Shown: piece after piece, positions 1,233-15,142 of the stretch | Layout of the letters: every line of letters starts with the position of its first letter | Numbering within the stretch: the stretch's first letter is position 1 | The notes under the pieces: generated by a model | Database searches by the model: none | What the model saw: only the letters and a program-made list of their open reading frames with translations | What the model was told of the DNA's origin: nothing | IMG/VR virus record: IMGVR_UViG_3300044681_000374 | Span: 1-33,201 of that record | Reading direction: 5' to 3' (one strand) | DNA length: 33,201 bases | From: a virus | Lineage: Duplodnaviria > Caudoviricetes | Translations under genes and position numbers: made by a program

Positions 1233-1375
1233 AGCGCTTTCTGCGGTTGATCACCCCGCTGCGCGTGCCGCTGCTGTTCGTGGTCATCCTCGCCGGCTGG
1301 CCCCTGGTGCTGCCCCTGGCCTGGGTCGCCCTGCTGGGCTTCTGCGTGGTCTGGCTGGCCAGGGGGAAGCGATGA
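1229..1375 (+). CDS. Small membrane protein (48 aa, MKRFLRLITPLRVPLLFVVILAGWPLVLPLAWVALLGFCVVWLARGKR)
   Basis: ATGA-coupled at both ends, GGAGG upstream, long hydrophobic stretch flanked by basic residues. Confidence 0.65.
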   Translation: MKRFLRLITPLRVPLLFVVILAGWPLVLPLAWVALLGFCVVWLARGKR

Positions 1376-1707
1376 GCGCCACCCCTGCAGACGTTGCCGC
1401 CATGCTGCGCGGCATCCGGGCCCACCATCAGGCGATCAGCGCCAGCGCAGTTGAGACGCTTTTGCACGTCGCAACAGGCGCAGACTGCAGCGCCGAACTC
1501 TGCCGCCGGATGGGGGTAGTGCGCCAAACCGTCAACCGGAACCTGCAGCACCTAGTAGGCCGCGGCCAGGTGGGCAAAGGTCGGGTTAGATCCAGGCTGG
1601 GGCTGGTGCAGCGGTCGAAACACCCAGACCGCAAAGGGTTTCGGCTTGAGCTCACAGAGAACGGCCGCGAACTGTTGGCTAGTACATTTGGACCATTTGA
1701 GCCATGA
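1372..1707 (+). CDS. MarR-like winged helix-turn-helix regulator 1
   Basis: HTH CSAELCRRMGVVRQTVNRNLQHL and wing GLVQRSKHPDRKGFRLELTENGR. Confidence 0.8.
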   Translation: MSATPADVAAMLRGIRAHHQAISASAVETLLHVATGADCSAELCRRMGVVRQTVNRNLQHLVGRGQVGKGRVRSRLGLVQRSKHPDRKGFRLELTENGRELLASTFGPFEP

Positions 1708-1834
1708 GGGTACGGCTGCTGGCAACTGTCTGCGTCCCTATCACAGGGCGATGGCTGGAGTGGTCGCTATGGGTTGAGAGCCATGGCGGCAGGCGCCGGC
1801 TTTCTCTGCAGCGGTGCCAAAGTGCGGGCAGTAG

Positions 1835-2167
1835 GTGTCACCTAGGACCGTGGATCTCCCTGCACTGGCCTTGGCCTTAGGCACTTTTGCCGCCCAAGAC
1901 CCAACCCGTTTCCCGCTGCATCACGCCCGCCTGTTCTTGGAGGTCGCGCTGAACGAGCCGGCCACCTTCGAGCACCTGGAGCAGGCCTTGAACCTGACCA
2001 ACTCCAGCGTTTCCCGTTCTGTCGCTGCCCTCAGCGATCGGAACCGCCACGGCGACCGCGGCTATCGGCTGCTCACCGTGGAACGCGACCCCGAGGAGGG
2101 GCGACGCTTCCTGGTCCGCTTGAGCCCTAAAGGCCGGCTGCTCCTGCAGCAGCTGCAGCGGATCTGA
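1835..2167 (+). CDS. MarR-like winged helix-turn-helix regulator 2 (alternative GTG start at 1850)
   Basis: HTH LEQALNLTNSSVSRSVAAL and wing RDPEEGRRFLVRLSPKGR; lies directly upstream of the integrase. Confidence 0.85.
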   Translation: MSPRTVDLPALALALGTFAAQDPTRFPLHHARLFLEVALNEPATFEHLEQALNLTNSSVSRSVAALSDRNRHGDRGYRLLTVERDPEEGRRFLVRLSPKGRLLLQQLQRI

Positions 2168-2201
2168 TCACACCACCACCACCACCACCAACAGAACCAC
2201 C

Positions 2202-3188
2202 ATGACCGGATCAGTTCGCCGCACGGCGGACGGCTGGATTGCCGATGTGACCATCGGCGGCACCCGCCGCACTGCCAAGCGCCGCACCAAGACCGAAGCC
2301 ATCGAGGCCAAACGCCAGCTGCTGGAGCTCCTGGTAGCCCGCGGCAGGGGCGAGCCGGACGGCATCACCATCACCGATGCCCGGGCCCTCTCCCTCCGCA
2401 TCCGCTGGGCTGGCAAGGCCTTCGAGCGGACCGCAGCCATCTACAGCCAAGCCGCCGTGGATCACTTCGGCCCGCTCACCCAGCTGGGGAGCATCACCGC
2501 GCCAGCCGTGGAGGAGTGGCGACAGCTGCTGCTGCGCGGCGGCAACCGCCCCGGCACCGTTAACGCAAAGGTCAGCTGTCTGCGGGCCATGTTCAGCGAT
2601 GCCGTGCTCCATGGACACCTGGCTGCCATCCCGCCGCTGCCCCGGCAGCTGACCAACCGCAACACCAAGGACCGCATCTTCTCGGATGCTGAGATCGCAG
2701 CGTTCTGCGATCGGTTCCATGCCGCAGGCCATCCCGCCGCGGCCGACCTTTTCATCTTCCTGCTGGAGACCTGCTGCAGGTGGGGGGAAGCCGAGCGACT
2801 GCGTGGGGGTGATGTGGATGTGGAGCGCCAGCGTGTCACCTTCTGGGAGACCAAGGCCAACCGGGCCCGCAGCGTGCCGCTCACCCGCCGCGGCCTGGAT
2901 GCCCTGCTGCCCCACCTGCCGGCCGTGCCGGGCCATCGGGTCTGGCCCTACCGCTACGGGCAGTTCAAGTGGCTGTTTGAGCGGGCGAAGGAGGGGCTGG
3001 GGATCAATGACCCTGCCCTAACGATCCACTGCACCCGCCACACCTGCGCGAGCAAGCTGGCGACCAAGGGGATCCCGCTCCACCAGCTGATGGCCTTCGG
3101 CGGCTGGACTTCCCTCCAGAGCGTGCAGCGCTACCTGCACCTGCACACCGATGCCCTGGCCAGCTGCGTGGCAGCGCTTGAGGCCTAA
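2202..3188 (+). CDS. int: Tyrosine recombinase/integrase
   Basis: Catalytic R (TCCRWGE), K (ETKANR), HxxR (HCTRH), W (GGWTS) and Y (QRYLH); N-terminal arm-binding-like segment GWIADVTIGGTRR. Confidence 0.95.
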   Translation: MTGSVRRTADGWIADVTIGGTRRTAKRRTKTEAIEAKRQLLELLVARGRGEPDGITITDARALSLRIRWAGKAFERTAAIYSQAAVDHFGPLTQLGSITAPAVEEWRQLLLRGGNRPGTVNAKVSCLRAMFSDAVLHGHLAAIPPLPRQLTNRNTKDRIFSDAEIAAFCDRFHAAGHPAAADLFIFLLETCCRWGEAERLRGGDVDVERQRVTFWETKANRARSVPLTRRGLDALLPHLPAVPGHRVWPYRYGQFKWLFERAKEGLGINDPALTIHCTRHTCASKLATKGIPLHQLMAFGGWTSLQSVQRYLHLHTDALASCVAALEA

Positions 3189-3456: not shown

Positions 3457-5856
3457 TTGTCCGCATCCGGCAATTCCTACACACCCCCGGAGGAGCGCCA
3501 GCGGCATCTGGAATCGGCGGCTCAGGAGGCCGCCGCCAACCGCTCGCGCATCGCCCGGGCCAAGCTCAAACAGCAGGAAAAAGAGAGCGCCACCGAATAC
3601 GGGCGGGCACTGTTCCAGGCCCACGGCGAGCGGGTGGCGCTGGCGCTTGAGCACAAGCTGGGCAAGGCGCTGAACCGCGAAGAGGTGGCCGGGCCCTATT
3701 ACGCCGGCATGTGGCTGCTGTTCCAGCTGGGTGACAAGGGGCCCCGCTCGATCGCTGCTGTTGCCCTGGGGGTGGTGCTCGATCGGATCAGCAAACCCAC
3801 CACCCACCGGGCTATGGCATCCGCCATCGGCCAGGCGATCGAGACGGAGATCAGGGCGCTGCCGATCGAGGACCGTGGGCAGGACTTGCTGCGCATCGCT
3901 CGCCGGCGGCACGGCAAGCGGCTGGCATCAAAGGCACGGCTGGAGCAGCTGCGCATCCAGGTGACGCCCTGGTCTGCTGCCGATCGCTTCCAGGTGGGCG
4001 CCTTCCTGCTGGAGATCATCACCACCGAAACCGAGCTGCTGCGAACGACGAAGCAGCCAGGGCGCCGCGGCCTGCAGCTGGCGCCAGCGCCCGTGGTGGC
4101 CGAGATCATCGCCGCCCATCCGCCCACACCTGCCAAGGCCCGCCGGCTGCCGATGCTCACCCCGCCCAGGCCATGGGAGGGGATGACGGGCGGCGGACAC
4201 CTCAGCAACACCGAACCGCTGGTGCGCAGCCGCAAGGGGCACCCGATCGACTACCTCACCACCGAGGCCCTGCAGCCAGCGCTGCGGGTGGTGAACACCC
4301 TGCAGGAGCAGCAGCTGCTGCTGGATCCATGGATGGTGGGCAATCAGCGCATTGCCTGGGATGCCAACTTGCGTGGGCTGTTCCCGATCCTGCGGGATCC
4401 GATCGAGGCCCCGCCCAAGCCGGTTGAGCTGGTGGGCAAGGAGGCCATGGCCCGCTGGCATCAGCAGGAGCAGGCCTTCCACCGTGACCGGATCGAAGGC
4501 CGCCACGCCCGCAACCAGATCGAGAGCTCCATCCGCCAGGCCGAGCAGCTGGCCGGCGAGCAGCTCTGGTTTAGCTGGTGCATGGACATGAGGGGCAGGC
4601 TCTACACCGCCAACCGGCTCACCACCCACCAGGGCCCCGACCATGAGAAGGCCCAGATCCTGATTGCCAACGCCAGGCCCTGCGACGACCGCGCCGCCGA
4701 CTGGATTCTCAAGGCCGCCGCGATCCACTGGGGCATGAAGGGCAGCTGGGTGGACCGGCTGCAGTTCGGCCGCGATCAGATCGAGCGGATGCTGGCCGCG
4801 GCCGAGGACCCGCTCGAGCGGGTACACCTATGGCGTGATGCCAAGGAGCCGTGGCAGTTCCTGGCCTGCTGCCGGGCCATCCAGCAGTGGATCGAGGACC
4901 CCAGCCAGCCGATCCATCAGCCGGTGCGACTGGATCAGACCAGCTCCGGCCCGGGCATTATCGGCGCCCTGCTCAGGGATCGAGGGCTGGCCCGGGCCTG
5001 CAATCTGATCGGCTCCACCCGCCATGACCTCTACACCGAGCTGGCCGAGGAGGTGACGCTGCTGCTGCGCTCCGATCTGGAGGCCGGCGACGCCAAGGAG
5101 CAGCGGCACGCGGGTTGGTGGCTGGAGCGGGGCATCACCCGCAACATGGCCAAGATCCCTGTCATGTCAACGGTTTACGGGGCGAAGCTGCTGGGTGTGA
5201 CCGAGCAGCTGGTGGCACTGCTCGATGAATCAGAGGGCACGGTGTCCCTGGGCCGGCTGGAGCGCGAGCGGCTGCTGCCCTGCCGCTACCTGGCGCGGAA
5301 GTTCGGCCTGGCTGTTGGCGCCAGGCTGGGTGGCGCCGTGGCGTTCCAGGCCTGGCTGCGGGCCGTGGTGCGGTGCTGCAGCGCCGTGAACAAGCCGATG
5401 CAGTGGACGACGCCGATGGGGCTGCTGATCCGGCTAGGCAAGGAGCTCACCGCCAGCAGCGGGGTGAAGTCGCTGCTGCATGGCACCCGCCGATGGCAGA
5501 CGCTGCTGGATGCGCCGCCGCCGGGGAAGCTCAGCGCCCTGGAGACCGGGCGGGCCATCACCGCCAATCTGATCCACAGCTTCGACGCCGCCTTGGTGTG
5601 GGCAATGGTCTGCGATGGTGCAGACAAAGGCGTAACGGTGCTGCCCAATCACGACTGTTTCGCCGTGCCGCCGTGCGATGCCGAGTGGCTGCACAGCACG
5701 CTTCTGTGGCGCACCGGGGAGCTCTACCGGCCGGACTGGTTGGCTGAGATCACGGCCGAAATCCAGGCTACGGCTGAGGTGAAGCTGCCAGCCCCGCCGA
5801 TGGTGGACACGCTGGAGGTGGGGCTGATCGGCAGGAATGCCTATCTGTTCTCCTAG
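3457..5856 (+). CDS. T7-like single-subunit DNA-directed RNA polymerase
   Basis: DMRGRLY, motif A (RLDQTSSG), motif B (RNMAKIPVMSTVYG), NLIHSFDA, motif C (HDCF). The TTG start is uncertain. Confidence 0.96.
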   Translation: MSASGNSYTPPEERQRHLESAAQEAAANRSRIARAKLKQQEKESATEYGRALFQAHGERVALALEHKLGKALNREEVAGPYYAGMWLLFQLGDKGPRSIAAVALGVVLDRISKPTTHRAMASAIGQAIETEIRALPIEDRGQDLLRIARRRHGKRLASKARLEQLRIQVTPWSAADRFQVGAFLLEIITTETELLRTTKQPGRRGLQLAPAPVVAEIIAAHPPTPAKARRLPMLTPPRPWEGMTGGGHLSNTEPLVRSRKGHPIDYLTTEALQPALRVVNTLQEQQLLLDPWMVGNQRIAWDANLRGLFPILRDPIEAPPKPVELVGKEAMARWHQQEQAFHRDRIEGRHARNQIESSIRQAEQLAGEQLWFSWCMDMRGRLYTANRLTTHQGPDHEKAQILIANARPCDDRAADWILKAAAIHWGMKGSWVDRLQFGRDQIERMLAAAEDPLERVHLWRDAKEPWQFLACCRAIQQWIEDPSQPIHQPVRLDQTSSGPGIIGALLRDRGLARACNLIGSTRHDLYTELAEEVTLLLRSDLEAGDAKEQRHAGWWLERGITRNMAKIPVMSTVYGAKLLGVTEQLVALLDESEGTVSLGRLERERLLPCRYLARKFGLAVGARLGGAVAFQAWLRAVVRCCSAVNKPMQWTTPMGLLIRLGKELTASSGVKSLLHGTRRWQTLLDAPPPGKLSALETGRAITANLIHSFDAALVWAMVCDGADKGVTVLPNHDCFAVPPCDAEWLHSTLLWRTGELYRPDWLAEITAEIQATAEVKLPAPPMVDTLEVGLIGRNAYLFS

Positions 5857-5861
5857 AGGTA

Positions 5862-5890
5862 TTGCCTAGGAGGCTCCTAGGTGCCATGCT
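5862..5890 (+). promoter_or_regulatory. Candidate sigma70-type promoter (TTGCCT-N17-CATGCT) overlapped by inverted repeat CCTAGGAG-G-CTCCTAGG (5865-5881)
   Basis: Read directly in the RNAP-SSB intergenic gap; 17-bp spacing. Confidence 0.4.
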
Positions 5891-5901
5891 GCAGCAGCAA
5901 C

Positions 5902-5917
5902 TCTGCACCCATGCAGC
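5902..5917. promoter_or_regulatory. Palindromic box TCTGCA-CCCA-TGCAGC (copy 2, 4 nt before the SSB start)
   Basis: Recurrent intergenic motif. Confidence 0.65.
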
Positions 5918-5921
5918 ACAA

Positions 5922-6572
5922 ATGCCGCGAGAACTGATTGTGACCCCAGTGGGCGAAGCCTGGTGGGCGAAATTGTTTGAGCCTGAGCAGGATCGCTTCG
6001 AGGAGGACAAGCCTCGGCAGTGGTCGATTGAGTGGGCTGGCCCGCAGAACAGCCGCGAGGTGTTGGGCCTCATGCAGACCATCGAGGCCGAGTTTGCTCG
6101 CCTCAACGGCGATGGCGCCAAGCCCAGCAAGAACGCCTGGCCGTTCAAGGAGCAGACCGACAAGGAAGGCAACCCCACCGGGCTGCTGGCGTTTCGGATG
6201 CGCAAGAACGAAACCACCAAGAAGGGCAAGGTGCTCCAGGCGCCGGCCATCTACGACAGCCACAAGAACCCATGGCCTGCCGACACCCTGATCGGCAATG
6301 GCAGCAAGGTGAAGGTGGCTTTCAGCTGTTACGGCTGGGAGGACAAGTTCGGCAAGAAGGGCATCAGCCTCAGTCTTGAGGCGGTGCAGGTGCTGGATCT
6401 GGTGCCCTACGAGCAGCGCGATCCCGGCGACGCCTTCGGAGTGGAGAACGGCTATGTGGTGGACACCCCGGCCGATGCGTTTGGCGGCGGCGACAAGGAG
6501 CTGAGCCCAAGCCAAAAGCTCCAGCGCCAATGGCAAGGCGAAGAACCGAGCGAAGAGGAAGTGCCCTTCTGA
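5922..6572 (+). CDS. ssb: Single-stranded DNA-binding protein, T7 gp2.5-like
   Basis: TPVGEAWWAKLFEP, IGNGSKVKVAF, GISLSLEAVQVLDLV and acidic tail EEEVPF. Start placed at ATG 5922. Confidence 0.9.
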   Translation: MPRELIVTPVGEAWWAKLFEPEQDRFEEDKPRQWSIEWAGPQNSREVLGLMQTIEAEFARLNGDGAKPSKNAWPFKEQTDKEGNPTGLLAFRMRKNETTKKGKVLQAPAIYDSHKNPWPADTLIGNGSKVKVAFSCYGWEDKFGKKGISLSLEAVQVLDLVPYEQRDPGDAFGVENGYVVDTPADAFGGGDKELSPSQKLQRQWQGEEPSEEEVPF

Positions 6573-6952
6573 TGAACACGCGATCAGCTGACTTTGAGCT
6601 GCCGCTGCCGCTCCAGCCCAAGGAGCGGCCCCGCTTTTCTGGCCATGCTTACAACAGCAAGAAGTATCGAGACTGGATGAAGCAATGCCGAGCAATTCTC
6701 GGCGAGTGGTGGACAGTCCCACCGCTTGAAAAGGGCCAGCTGATCGCCGTTTACCTCCTCTTCCGTGGCCCTGGCACCAGTGATCTCGACAACCTCTGCG
6801 GGGCAGTAATGGATGCCGGCAAAGGTATCCTCTGGGCCGACGATCGGGTAACGGTCATCAGACGAATTGAGGCCCAGTGGGAGCGGGCCACCAAGAAACA
6901 ACAATCCATTCTTCTAAAGGTGATTTGGGATGACGCTTACTGCCGTTGCTAA
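6572..6952 (+). CDS. rusA: RusA-family Holliday junction resolvase
   Basis: PKERPRF, DLDNL...VMDA..GILWADDR catalytic pattern; TGATG coupling to SSB. Confidence 0.85.
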   Translation: MNTRSADFELPLPLQPKERPRFSGHAYNSKKYRDWMKQCRAILGEWWTVPPLEKGQLIAVYLLFRGPGTSDLDNLCGAVMDAGKGILWADDRVTVIRRIEAQWERATKKQQSILLKVIWDDAYCRC

Positions 6953-7895
6953 CCCGATTGTCATTTCGCAGTATCAAGTTCTGCTGGATGACATCGAACA
7001 GGCCAAGAAGGAGGCCGCGCCCTCCTTCGACTACGAAACAAAAGAGGGCGACAAAGCCGCCCGCAGCTACATCTTCAAGTTGCGCAAGCTCCGTGCTCGG
7101 GTCGAGTCCGCACGCAAGGAGGCAAAGGCCTACAGCATTGCCTACGGGAAGCGGGTTGACGAGCAGGCCAAGGACCTCAGCAGCCAGGTGGACGAGCTGA
7201 TTCAGCCCCACCAGGAGCAGCTTGAGGCCATCGCTCTCCGCGAGGCTGAGCGGGTCGCGGCGCATCAGCTCGTCCTCGATCAGGCTGAGCACATCGGCGT
7301 GGTCGGCTTTGGCGAGGGATCGGCTCAAATCCAGGGCCGGCTCGACGCCCTGGACGAAATCAGTCTTGAGGGGCTGGAGGAGTTTACCGAGAAGGTGGCT
7401 GCGGCCATCGTGACTTCTCGGAAAACGCTGCAGCAGGCGCTGCAGCAGGCGCTGCAGGCTGAGGAGCAAGCCATCGAGCTGGCCAGGCTCAAGGCTGAAC
7501 AGGACGAGCGCGAAGCCAGGGAGCGCGAGGAGCGCATCAGGCGCGAAGCCCAAGAGAGGGCCGACGACGAAGCGGCCCAGGCGGCAGCGGACGCCATCGC
7601 AGCAGCCGAGGCCAGGGCCGCCGCCGCCGAAGCCAAAGCGGCTCAAGCGGAGGCCGCAGCCAGTCGGCCGCCAGCAGTGGCTGCGGCTCCCGCTAAGGCC
7701 GACGCGCCCGCCGAAATGGAGCACGGCACTTTCGTTGTCGAACTTCCGACGCCCCCGGCCAAAAAGGCGTTGGCCATCAACGTGCTCGAAGTAAGCATGA
7801 TCGGCATGAATCGCCGCCAAGTAGCGGAGGCAATCGTCGCGGGCCGCCTACATCCGAGCCTGCAAGTCCGTATTCACTGGGACCTACTCAAATGA
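6930..7895 (+). CDS. Coiled-coil phage protein (321 aa), resembling proteins of lambdoid recombination regions
   Basis: DYETKEGDKAARSYIFKLRK...KRVDEQAK N-terminus followed by a long E/A/R-rich helix. Confidence 0.7.
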   Translation: MTLTAVANPIVISQYQVLLDDIEQAKKEAAPSFDYETKEGDKAARSYIFKLRKLRARVESARKEAKAYSIAYGKRVDEQAKDLSSQVDELIQPHQEQLEAIALREAERVAAHQLVLDQAEHIGVVGFGEGSAQIQGRLDALDEISLEGLEEFTEKVAAAIVTSRKTLQQALQQALQAEEQAIELARLKAEQDEREAREREERIRREAQERADDEAAQAAADAIAAAEARAAAAEAKAAQAEAAASRPPAVAAAPAKADAPAEMEHGTFVVELPTPPAKKALAINVLEVSMIGMNRRQVAEAIVAGRLHPSLQVRIHWDLLK

Positions 7896-8068
7896 ACAAT
7901 CACGGCTATCCACCGCAAAATAAGCAGTCCTGTGCGAACTGCTATTACTACATCAGAGCTGCGTGCCGTCGCCGCGCTCCAGACCCGCCCTTGCGAATGG
8001 CGTATTGGCCATGCGTCATGAGCGACGAGTGGTGCGGCGAATGGGCCCCGAAGGAGGTGAGCCAATGA
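7892..8068 (+). CDS. Small Cys-rich protein (58 aa; CANC...CRRRAP...WPCVMSDEWCGEW), absent from the ORF track
   Basis: Translated by hand; ATGA-coupled at both ends; the CxxC...CRR.AP...WP...WCGE pattern is common in small phage metal-binding proteins. Confidence 0.75.
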   Translation: MNNHGYPPQNKQSCANCYYYIRAACRRRAPDPPLRMAYWPCVMSDEWCGEWAPKEVSQ

Positions 8069-8634
8069 GGTGCCCACATTGCGGTTGGAACAACACCAAG
8101 GTCGAAGAAACCCGGCCACGGGAGGAAGGCGATCTGCGATACCGACGCTGCCTTAGTTGCTGCCAGCGTTTCACCACCATGGAGCGGGTGTGCATCAACG
8201 ACCCAGGCGCCGCTGGTTATCTCGACGCGCATCCCCTGCGGGTGGTGCCGGAGCCCCAGCAACCCGCCAAGGCACCGGCCAAGGCCGCCCGCACTGCCCG
8301 GTTCATGCCGGACGAGGTGCCCGAGGAGTTCGGCATCACCCCCGAGGCCGCCCCGCTGCTGCTGCAGTGGTGGCGCGAAAGCCGCCGCAGCAAGCACGGC
8401 AGCAAAGCCACCTGGACTGAGGCTGCCTGGCTGGGCAGCGTTGTCCGGGTGGGCCGGCTGCCGGCTGCCAAGCAGGTCGAGCTCTGCACCGCTGGAGTGG
8501 AGAACGGCTGGCAGGCGCTGCGGGAGGAGTACCTGGGCAGCCACAAGCCGCTCGGCCTGCCGCAGATGGGCCGCCGGCCCATGCCCAAGGACCCCGCCAT
8601 GCTCGCCGCGCTGGAGGAGCCATGGCCGGCCTGA
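8065..8634 (+). CDS. NrdR-type zinc ribbon fused to a replication-initiator-like C-terminal domain (189 aa)
   Basis: Strong RBS AAGGAGGT at 8051. MRCPHCG..TKVEETR...RYRRCLSCCQRFTTMERV matches the NrdR N-terminus but no ATP cone follows; the C-terminus WWRESRRSK...AGVENGWQAL resembles phage replisome-organiser tails. Confidence 0.6.
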   Translation: MRCPHCGWNNTKVEETRPREEGDLRYRRCLSCCQRFTTMERVCINDPGAAGYLDAHPLRVVPEPQQPAKAPAKAARTARFMPDEVPEEFGITPEAAPLLLQWWRESRRSKHGSKATWTEAAWLGSVVRVGRLPAAKQVELCTAGVENGWQALREEYLGSHKPLGLPQMGRRPMPKDPAMLAALEEPWPA

Positions 8635-9140
8635 CTGCCGAGACCTTCCTGGCGGTTGCCGAAATGGTGGCCGGCCACCTGCGGCTCAAGGAGGCCGACC
8701 GCTGGAGTCCCCATGTCTGCCGGCTCAAGCTCCACAGCTTCAAAGCTGAGTTCCCCGAGGTGAACGACCCGCAGCTGATGTGGGCCGCCGAGAGGTGGAT
8801 CCAGTCCACCGACCCCCAGGCGTTCCATCGCTTCCCGATCTGGGCTGAGCTGATGGCACCGCTGTACCGGACCGAGGGCGGGCTGGCGAATCGCAGCTGG
8901 GGCCCCAAAGAGGACCTGCCGAAGTTCGTTCAGTTCAAGCCCGCCCAGCTGGCGCTGCTGCCCGAGGCGCCCGCCTCGATCCATGCCGCGCCCGACCCGG
9001 CCAATGCCCAGGCCTATGCGCTGGTGCAGGGCAGCCAGCGCCCAGCGCTCCCGCCCGCCGAGGAGGCCCAGGGCCTCACCGATGAGCAGTGGCAGGCCTA
9101 CCTGCAGCAGGTGCGGGAGGAGGCGACATGCAGCCCCTGA
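8622..9140 (+). CDS. Putative helicase loader/inhibitor-like protein (lambda P / SPP1 G39P-like position and pattern)
   Basis: Overlaps the previous gene; AAERWIQ...RFPIWAEL resembles the A...I.....FP..AE pattern of loader-inhibitor proteins. The function is an inference. Confidence 0.45.
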   Translation: MAGLTAETFLAVAEMVAGHLRLKEADRWSPHVCRLKLHSFKAEFPEVNDPQLMWAAERWIQSTDPQAFHRFPIWAELMAPLYRTEGGLANRSWGPKEDLPKFVQFKPAQLALLPEAPASIHAAPDPANAQAYALVQGSQRPALPPAEEAQGLTDEQWQAYLQQVREEATCSP

Positions 9141-9346
9141 TCAGCGGCACTGCACTGCAGGGGATCCTCGAAAAGGGTCTGCTCCAGGGGTACTGGTCGA
9201 TCGACCAGTTCAACCGGACGAGCAAGAAAGGCGAGCCGGTGTTGCCCACGCCTGGGTTCATCACCGAGCACCCGCAGTTCTTCGACCGGAGCCACCGCGA
9301 TCTCGATGCATACGCCAAAGGCGCGGGCAGGAGGGACTGGTTTTGA
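9128..9346 (+). CDS. Hypothetical protein (72 aa, MQPLISGTALQGILEKGL...)
   Basis: GGAGG RBS, overlaps neighbours, plausible codon usage. Confidence 0.65.
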   Translation: MQPLISGTALQGILEKGLLQGYWSIDQFNRTSKKGEPVLPTPGFITEHPQFFDRSHRDLDAYAKGAGRRDWF

Positions 9347-10203: not shown

Positions 10204-10436
10204 AGCCATCCACGCTTGATCTCGGCGGCGGCATGACTGCCAGTGCCCACCGTGGCGGCCCGTCCGGTCGCTACTTCGTTGGCTACTCCAAAGGCATCAG
10301 CGGTCTGTTCGATGGCATCGAATCGCTGCGCCGTTTTCTTCGCCTCCCACCTGGGACGCCAAGCCGTCAGGCCTTTGACGAATGGGCAAACAGCCTTGAA
10401 CACCCCGAGCCGACCACGAATGAAAGCCCTGATTGA
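10200..10436 (+). CDS. Hypothetical protein (78 aa, MKPSTLDLGGG...)
   Basis: GGAGG RBS and ATGA coupling. Confidence 0.6.
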   Translation: MKPSTLDLGGGMTASAHRGGPSGRYFVGYSKGISGLFDGIESLRRFLRLPPGTPSRQAFDEWANSLEHPEPTTNESPD

Positions 10437-11160
10437 TACCGAGGTCTATCTGTTCCGCGCTGCTGCAGCGTGCGAAATGGAAGCCGAGTGGGCCCCTGAC
10501 GACTGGACCTACATCTGCCGCCACGGTGATGCGCAGGCCCAGTTCCAAGACCAGATCGCAGAGCTGCTCGACCAGCTGCCGGGTCTCCAGCCGGTGCTGG
10601 TGTTCTCCGCTGGCGTCAGCTTCCGCTATGGCATCTGGCGCTGGTACAAGGCCAACCGCAAGAAGTACCGCAAGCCAGCCGGCTACCGGCAGCTCAGGCA
10701 GTGGGTTGCCCAGGCCGCACCATCCCGCGGCTGGCAGGTGGTCGAGCTGCCCGACATTGAAGGCGATGACGTGCTCGGCGTGCTCTACGAACAGGGCGAC
10801 GTGATCGTGTCGATCGACAAGGACATGCTCACCCTGCCCGGCTACCACCTGCGGGATGGCCAAATCATTGAGGTGTCCCGGCACGACGCGGACATGGCGT
10901 TCTACACCCAGGCCCTGGTCGGTGACACCAGCGACAACTACCCCGGCTGCCCGGGCTATGGGCCCGTCGCTGCAGGGAAGGCTCTAGCCGGGTGCTCAAC
11001 CGAGAGTGAAATGTGGGCGGCAGTTGTTGCCGCCTTCGCCAAGAAAGGCCTCGATGAGCGCTATGCCATCCAGCAAGCCCGCTGCGCTCGCATCCTTCGG
11101 CCCGGCGAATACGACCTGGACAGCCACACTGTCCGCCTATGGGAGCCCCCGGTAGCCTAA
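10420..11160 (+). CDS. 5'-3' exonuclease, T7 gp6-like
   Basis: MKALIDTE, YKANRK, EGDDVLG, SIDKDM and LVGDTSDNYPGCPGYGP motifs. Start placed at ATG 10420. Confidence 0.93.
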   Translation: MKALIDTEVYLFRAAAACEMEAEWAPDDWTYICRHGDAQAQFQDQIAELLDQLPGLQPVLVFSAGVSFRYGIWRWYKANRKKYRKPAGYRQLRQWVAQAAPSRGWQVVELPDIEGDDVLGVLYEQGDVIVSIDKDMLTLPGYHLRDGQIIEVSRHDADMAFYTQALVGDTSDNYPGCPGYGPVAAGKALAGCSTESEMWAAVVAAFAKKGLDERYAIQQARCARILRPGEYDLDSHTVRLWEPPVA

Positions 11161-13791: not shown

Positions 13792-14025
13792 ATGGAACAA
13801 AACGAATCCTTCGGCCTTGTGCTTGCTGATCTCGATTCCGAGTTTCGGCACCGCTGGTCCCGTCGCGGATGGAACGGCCCTGGTCAATTCATCGAGCTGC
13901 AGGTCCCCGATGAGCACAGCAAGATGACCCTCCCTTACATCTTCATCACGACCGTTCAGGGCAGCCGAGTCCCCTGGCTTGCGAGCCAAACCGACCTGCT
14001 TGCCAAGGACTGGTACATCGTTTAA
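13792..14025 (+). CDS. DUF2829 / Thoeris anti-defence Tad2-like protein (77 aa)
   Basis: RRGWNGPGQF...PYIFI...VPWLASQTDLLAKDW signature. Confidence 0.85.
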   Translation: MEQNESFGLVLADLDSEFRHRWSRRGWNGPGQFIELQVPDEHSKMTLPYIFITTVQGSRVPWLASQTDLLAKDWYIV

Positions 14026-15035: not shown

Positions 15036-15053
15036 AAGGTGTGCATGAGTACG

Positions 15054-15069
15054 TCTGCACTCACGCAGA
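15054..15069. promoter_or_regulatory. Palindromic box TCTGCA-CTCA-CGCAGA (copy 4, upstream of the major capsid gene)
   Basis: Recurrent motif in the scaffold-capsid intergenic region. Confidence 0.65.
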
Positions 15070-15142
15070 GCACAGGCCGGCCTAGGCCGACACCCTGATC
15101 GCAAAACCGTAGAGACGGCAGAGGCTCACAGCAAACCTTGCA

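Follow-up and report, generated by a model that had tools for sequence, protein, structure and literature searches.

Genes A, B and C

[quoted passage not shown] Genes A and B had been singled out from the sequence alone as an O/P-like initiator and loader pair that stands in for the primase-helicase (gp4) and DNA polymerase (gp5) of T7-like phages (hereafter, the original prediction). The coordinates given for the pair, 8065..9140, are correct, and the two genes overlap by 13 nt. A zinc ribbon in A (PF22811) and the third conserved gene, C, which follows B, were absent from that prediction.

8065..8634, + strand: gene A, 189 aa, contains ENGWQAL; purine-rich ribosome site
8347..8544, + strand: part of gene A that encodes the predicted O-like (replication initiator) C-terminal domain, from hhalign against 18 O-like proteins and from ESM neighbours
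8622..9140, + strand: gene B, 172 aa, contains RFPIWAEL; purine-rich ribosome site
9128..9346, + strand: gene C, 72 aa, with a 13-nt overlap with B; in distant relatives it forms the C-terminal domain of B

Protein B is made up of a helical domain with a predicted G39P-like fold (residues 4–79), a conserved hairpin extension (80–135) and a short C-terminal helix. Among 48,161 chains, G39P of phage SPP1 ranked first for B, a match that had been predicted beforehand. Residues 4–79 of B superpose on the whole G39P N-domain (all 67 residues, the lowest root-mean-square deviation (rmsd) listed, 8% identity), two other methods agree with the match, and B has the compact helical N-domain of that fold. 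Sequence searches gave no named relative: none of 121 B members matches PF11417 at E <= 1 (a reference search with this family gave one match in 401 genomes), a PDB sequence profile search with B gave no match, and the B profile, run against 1.84 billion representatives, picked up 44 proteins without arriving at a named family. Gene A lies directly before B in 83 of 84 loci, although A is only partly initiator-like. The modelled fold makes B a likely helicase loader/inhibitor.

Gene C was found in all 88 loci selected by the presence of B, and B and C are joined as one protein in nine cases; in a set of loci selected by RNA polymerase (RNAP), C was not detected in 6 of the 36 that bear B. It has no named match in Pfam, PHROG or hhalign comparisons and no profile match to lambda P. 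Directly 3' of gene C, two close relatives carry a family X polymerase-like gene of 172 aa with palm and thumb (L003:10734-11252, + strand; also L005).

Protein A starts with an NrdR-like Cys4 zinc ribbon (residues 1–42; PF22811, E 1.2e-9, residues 1–40), which is followed by a variable linker, a conserved three-helix C-domain (about residues 95–160) and a tail (170–188, GRPMPKDPAMLAALEEPWP) that is strongly conserved (68–70 homologues) and has low confidence in the AlphaFold model. The similarity to NrdR stops at about residue 42–69, the NrdR ATP cone has no match in A, and a PDB sequence profile search with A returned NrdR and zinc fingers only.

The C-domain of A is predicted to be O-like. 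The family phrog_678, 'replication initiation O-like', is matched by 12 of 68 A homologues (E 7.5e-4 to 0.14), and the five matches inspected cover the C-domain, aligned to profile positions of about 203–296 of 346. A comparison set was drawn from 30 phrog_678 loci in 301 genomes, of which the 18 with a match reaching the C-terminal part were kept; the genes 3' of phrog_678 initiators resemble P, DnaC or DnaB by eye, and two were confirmed as PF06992. Aligned to the 18 proteins with hhalign, the C-domain gave a probability of 60% and a score of 31.4 over 51 columns, a result that is not independent of the PHROG match; 60 column shuffles scored 10.6 +/- 1.8 (maximum 16.4), and none reached 31.4. 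The nearest named ESM clusters are DUF7833, Phg_2220_C and DnaT (0.88–0.90), with low shared-feature counts. VIA-align of the whole-protein A model found no solved structure or named replication protein matching the C-domain, and Foldseek, from which the original prediction had expected hits for both proteins, gave no PDB match at E <= 0.001 for the models of A and B.

Absence of DNA polymerase and primase-helicase

No sense open reading frame (ORF) longer than about 320 aa was said to lie between SSB and exonuclease, and none to show TOPRIM, Walker A or PolA motifs; both statements hold. From the SSB end (6572) to the exonuclease ATG (10420), the longest + strand ORF has 321 aa (6930–7895). 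The Walker A pattern does not occur on the + strand across the window (three matches, all antisense), and the 29 window proteins scanned, a set that leaves out the tail tube and three large virion proteins, have no Pfam match to Toprim, DnaB_C or PolA. In the 66 loci that span both genes, the gap from SSB to exonuclease measures 2.3–6.1 kb (median 2.9 kb) and holds no + strand Walker A motif. The 321-aa ORF (+ strand) encodes an alanine/glutamate-rich protein (phrog_1376, no known function) and appears to be accessory, as it is found between A and the gene for the Holliday junction resolvase RusA in only 8 of 88 loci.

Because the window is an incomplete genome, the absence of gp4 and gp5, which the original prediction required to hold elsewhere in the genome as well, was tested on relatives. 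Neither PF00476 (PolA) nor PF03796 (DnaB_C) is found in any of five complete or 99–100% complete relatives (0/5 each), and a gp4 profile derived from a sister lineage has no match in the window, in 87 B-bearing loci or in G001. The latter, one of the five relatives (42,709 bp), has its genes in line with those of the window at 82–92% DNA identity, and its extra 9–10 kb contain tail, lysis-type and terminase genes (labels by eye). The absence of gp4 and gp5 in the lineage is real, though the window itself is partial.

Probable replacement of gp4

Two sister phages, MedDCM-OCT-S37-C6 (Oinezvirus) and S31-C1 (Nohivirus), share the chassis of the window (MarR, integrase, RNAP at 36–37% identity, SSB, RusA, zinc ribbon and exonuclease) and have no annotated DNA polymerase. 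Unlike the window, they carry after RusA a free zinc-ribbon gene (87 and 61 aa) and then a Toprim + DnaB_C primase-helicase, which the same DnaB_C Pfam model detects at E of about 1e-17, and they lack the A C-domain, B and C. RusA is common to the window lineage and to these sisters.

The two arrangements exclude each other. Among the best 80 of 244 RNAP loci, ranked by likeness to S31-C1 and with some redundancy, 37 have gp4 only, 36 have the A C-domain and B only, none has both and 7, all truncated, have neither. A free zinc-ribbon gene lies 5' of gp4 in 36 of the 37, and in all 36 loci of the A/B type the ribbon is fused. In addition, gp4 is absent from the 88 B-selected loci, and the A C-domain, B and C are all absent from 80 gp4-selected loci. 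A, B and C sit in the gp4 slot, and in-place replacement of gp4 is supported by this perfect exclusion. The proposal that the module replaced gp4 and gp5 together is supported for gp4 and fails for gp5, which is also missing from the gp4-bearing sisters.

In an RNAP tree (FastTree, 84 sequences of at least 600 aa, four outgroups), the two types form two clades, with a support of 0.998 for the gp4 type and 0.31 for the A/B type. The tree suggests one gp4 swap rather than many. As gp4 is the T7-wide state, the parsimonious order would be loss of gp5 first, followed by replacement of gp4 with [O-like C-domain]-B-C, and the incoming O-like piece appears to have been fused to the resident zinc-ribbon gene.

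Predicted loading of the host helicase

We favour, at a probability of roughly 0.7, the interpretation that A, B and C constitute an imported O/P-type module, which loads host DnaB on the phage DNA, and that host primase and Pol III copy the genome. Its observed basis is the position of the three genes, the exclusion of gp4, the fusion of B to C in relatives and that of the A C-domain to a zinc-ribbon gene; the G39P-like fold of B and the O-like nature of the A C-domain are predictions. Since the module appears to have taken the role of gp4, B has a predicted loader fold and no phage helicase is encoded, the helicase should be host DnaB. Such contigs occur in three genome bins with a cyanobacterial label, and all three contain both DnaB and DciA. 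B, with or without C, would bind DnaB and deliver it in place of host DciA. By analogy with SPP1 and lambda, the A C-domain and conserved tail would serve to position B at the start site, and once DnaB is loaded the host primase and Pol III would come in. The phage would keep its own SSB, RusA and 5' exonuclease. Candidates for origin recognition are the A zinc ribbon, a winged-helix protein encoded beside the terminase and an R-loop made by the phage RNAP.

Several features of the lambda system are missing. In lambda, iterons and an AT-rich tract lie inside the initiator gene, and O has an N-terminal winged helix. A has no N-terminal winged-helix origin-binding domain; the zinc ribbon takes the place that an origin-binding domain holds in O, DnaD and G38P. 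No repeat in at least three copies within gene A is shared across 72 loci, and gene A has no AT-rich tract (AT 27–44% throughout). An origin within gene A is ruled out on these grounds, and the likeness of A to O that had been proposed is weakly borne out in the C-domain. The P-like match expected for B did not materialize at the sequence level either: none of the 121 B members has a Pfam match to lambda P (PF06992), and hhalign of B against lambda P stayed at shuffle level (seven sequences, including one from a wrong ORF).

It is improbable, in our estimate, that B mainly inhibits host DnaB, halting host replication, while host PriA/DciA start phage DNA on R-loops produced by the phage RNAP or on RusA-resolved recombination intermediates. 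The PDB title of G39P, 'helicase loader/inhibitor', the lack of a recognisable origin-binding domain in A and of any origin found, the retention of RNAP, SSB, RusA and exonuclease, and the DciA carried by the hosts are all compatible with inhibition, but an inhibitor would not need to exclude gp4 or to occupy its exact slot, and the O-like C-domain directly 5' of B fits loading better. Less probable again is that A is an NrdR/Ogr zinc-ribbon transcription regulator with B and C as its partners, that the fold matches reflect an accidental resemblance between small helical bundles and that host proteins alone replicate the phage. Because the gp4-bearing sisters have the zinc ribbon as a gene of its own, it is not the part that changed; A has no NrdR ATP cone, and the G39P match was foreseen, spans all 67 residues at the lowest rmsd listed and is shared by two other methods. 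That gp4 and gp5 lie in the 9–10 kb by which the window falls short of a full genome, or have diverged past detection, is highly improbable and largely refuted by the five complete relatives, by the ease with which the same Pfam model finds gp4 of the sisters, by the blank result of the sister-derived profile in G001 and by the absence stated for S-SRP02 in the accessible text of PMC12695635.

Candidate origin elements

The winged-helix gene beside the terminase, W (120–131 aa), lies outside the window (L136:1005-1400, + strand, in G001; L001:9650-10024, − strand; L002:42290-42655, + strand), and terminase is also present in all 48 W loci. It corresponds to p013 of Synechococcus phage S-SRP02, and only two of 50,697 phage records, S-SRP02 and S38-C3, contain A, B or W at full length. 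W has weak matches to RepL, HTH_36 and DnaD_N and, in the N-terminal half of phrog_678, to positions 76–127; the C-terminal half of that family is the one matched by A. Against the O-like profile it scores 27.6, and MarR controls score 18.9 and 22.2, so the match is partly generic. A conserved non-coding element of 200 nt lies 5' of W and is single-copy in S-SRP02 and G001. W is not specific to the A/B type, as homologues lie beside the terminase in two gp4-type loci (L289, L294); in S37-C6, L279, L299 and L277 an unrelated winged helix occupies its place, and one relative has two tandem W-type genes (L315:996-1815, − strand). W is a possible origin-binding protein. A tentative elaboration of the loading module, with odds on the low side, is that the phage exchanged its T7-like replisome for a lambdoid one with a split initiator: the loader-docking C-half would be in A, next to B and C, and W would be the origin-binding half, acting in trans, from ~10 kb away, on its upstream element.

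5852..5881, strand not assigned: tandem CCTAGG palindromes between RNAP and SSB (5852, imperfect; 5865; 5876)

CCTAGG occurs before SSB in 38 of 49 dereplicated A/B-type loci, compared with 2 of 25 gp4-type loci and a background of 0.032 per 130 nt. In the A/B type it is also enriched before MarR2 (36/41; window 1841–1846) and, in at least two copies, before W (13/20), whereas the gp4 type rarely has it; before A (0/56), B (0/44) and C (0/50) it is absent. The palindromes are likely a repressor operator, with MarR as the candidate repressor; iterons are less likely because the presence of the motif before MarR2 and W and its absence before A, B and C form the pattern of an autoregulated operator. 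Cumulative GC skew gave no clear origin in two complete records and the window.

Relation to known phages and replication systems

S-SRP02 (MW822601) and MedDCM-OCT-S38-C3 (AP013548, Stopalavirus), 'clade S' of PMC12695635, have the chassis and module of the window, which differs from them in extra accessory genes (the 321-aa coiled protein and a Tad2-like gene). Identity is 46% between S-SRP02 p028 and A and 61% between p029 and B, C is present as an unannotated gene, and the annotation of p028 and p029 reads 'NrdR regulator' and 'hypothetical', with nothing further. S-SRP02 p014 (L001:10903-11607, + strand) is annotated as a beta-clamp and matches both a processivity-factor PHROG and a RusA-like PHROG, which leaves the label uncertain.

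The initiator-like gene directly 5' of G39P-like B recalls SPP1 G38P/G39P, but SPP1 loads its own helicase, G40P, according to the accessible part of PMC3561973, and the window lineage encodes none. A is not demonstrably related to G38P. The likeness to lambda O/P lies in the adjoining initiator and loader and in the lack of a phage helicase, primase or polymerase, whereas A has neither the N-terminal winged helix nor the internal iteron origin, and the chassis is of T7 type and includes an RNAP. B and C together have ~240 aa, and lambda P has 233 aa (PMC12661323, in the part available). The phage-derived VdhL1/2 contain a G39P-like core at a Z similar to that of B, and VdhL acts on host DnaB (PMC11087808).

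Loss of gp4 and gp5 has already been published for this lineage: the accessible text of PMC12695635 states the absence of primase-helicase and polymerase for S-SRP02. In its accessible text, PMC8790148 gives the S-SRP02 exonuclease the name DNA polymerase I and contains no reference to primase or helicase, and that of PMC12361551 reports about half of marine Autographiviridae to be without at least one replication gene. The clade C (MPP-C) cyanopodoviruses of PMC9860041 are T7-like and, like the window, without gp5, but keep gp4. On how polymerase-less cyanophages copy their DNA, the part of that paper available offers hypotheses only; its authors propose host Pol III for clade C, citing SPP1. 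The occurrence of gp4 across the clade may already be documented in Extended Data Fig. 6 or Supplementary Data 4 of PMC12695635, or else in Figs 2-3 of PMC12361551. Our literature search, with supplements and figures outside it, found no paper that gives A, B and C an initiator/loader role or draws the contrast with the gp4-bearing sisters.

The standard textbook example of a self-sufficient replisome is that of T7-like phages. This clade displays two steps together, the sisters having lost gp5 and kept gp4, and the window lineage having exchanged gp4, at the same site, for a predicted host-helicase loader. Surveys based on polA and primase overlook such a lineage. If the interpretation is right, the phage makes a loader or inhibitor of picocyanobacterial DnaB. 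Three small proteins and a cultured pair, S-SRP02 and Synechococcus SR-C1, make the question directly testable.

The window and its lineage

The window begins within an ArdC-like antirestriction gene and ends within a tail fibre gene, without a terminase. After the cut ArdC-like gene come two MarR-like winged helices, a tyrosine integrase, RNAP, SSB and RusA, followed by a run of small genes, the exonuclease, portal, capsid and tail genes and the cut tail fibre gene.

3457..5856, + strand: T7-like RNA polymerase (PF00940, PF14700), with stretches that we take to be motifs A, B and C
5862..6572, + strand: gp2.5-like SSB (phrog_112, E 6.9e-20), likely start ATG 5922
6572..6952, + strand: Holliday junction resolvase of the RusA type, standing in for T7 gp3 (PF05866, E 6.8e-8)
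10420..11160, + strand: 5'-3' exonuclease, gp6-like (PF02739, phrog_107); its S-SRP02 counterpart carries the label 'DNA polymerase I'

The chassis is that of clade S: the RNAP is closest to that of S-SRP02, the nearest isolate (46%), and portal, capsid and tail fibre were detected. The RNAP is 36–37% identical to those of three uvMED phages and at most 27% to the next among the matches listed. Judging from S-SRP02 and from Cyanobium-labelled homologues, this T7-type virus likely infects freshwater cyanobacteria. Binning or labelling errors are the probable reason why two phage-sized contigs of the lineage (L086, L087) lie in genome bins that bear the names Klebsiella and Sphingomonadaceae.

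The two MarR-like genes and the tyrosine integrase lie 5' of RNAP (1372–3188, + strand) and suggest a temperate lifestyle; LUZ100 is a T7-like phage that carries MarR and integrase, according to the accessible part of PMC10134795. A CTGCAC..TGCAG-like element at about 5900–5915 and 15045–15075 recurs 5' of SSB and the major capsid gene in relatives and is, by eye, a candidate promoter for the phage RNAP. Inserted between the portal and scaffold genes is a Tad2-like anti-Thoeris gene (13792–14025, + strand; PF11195, E 1e-18).
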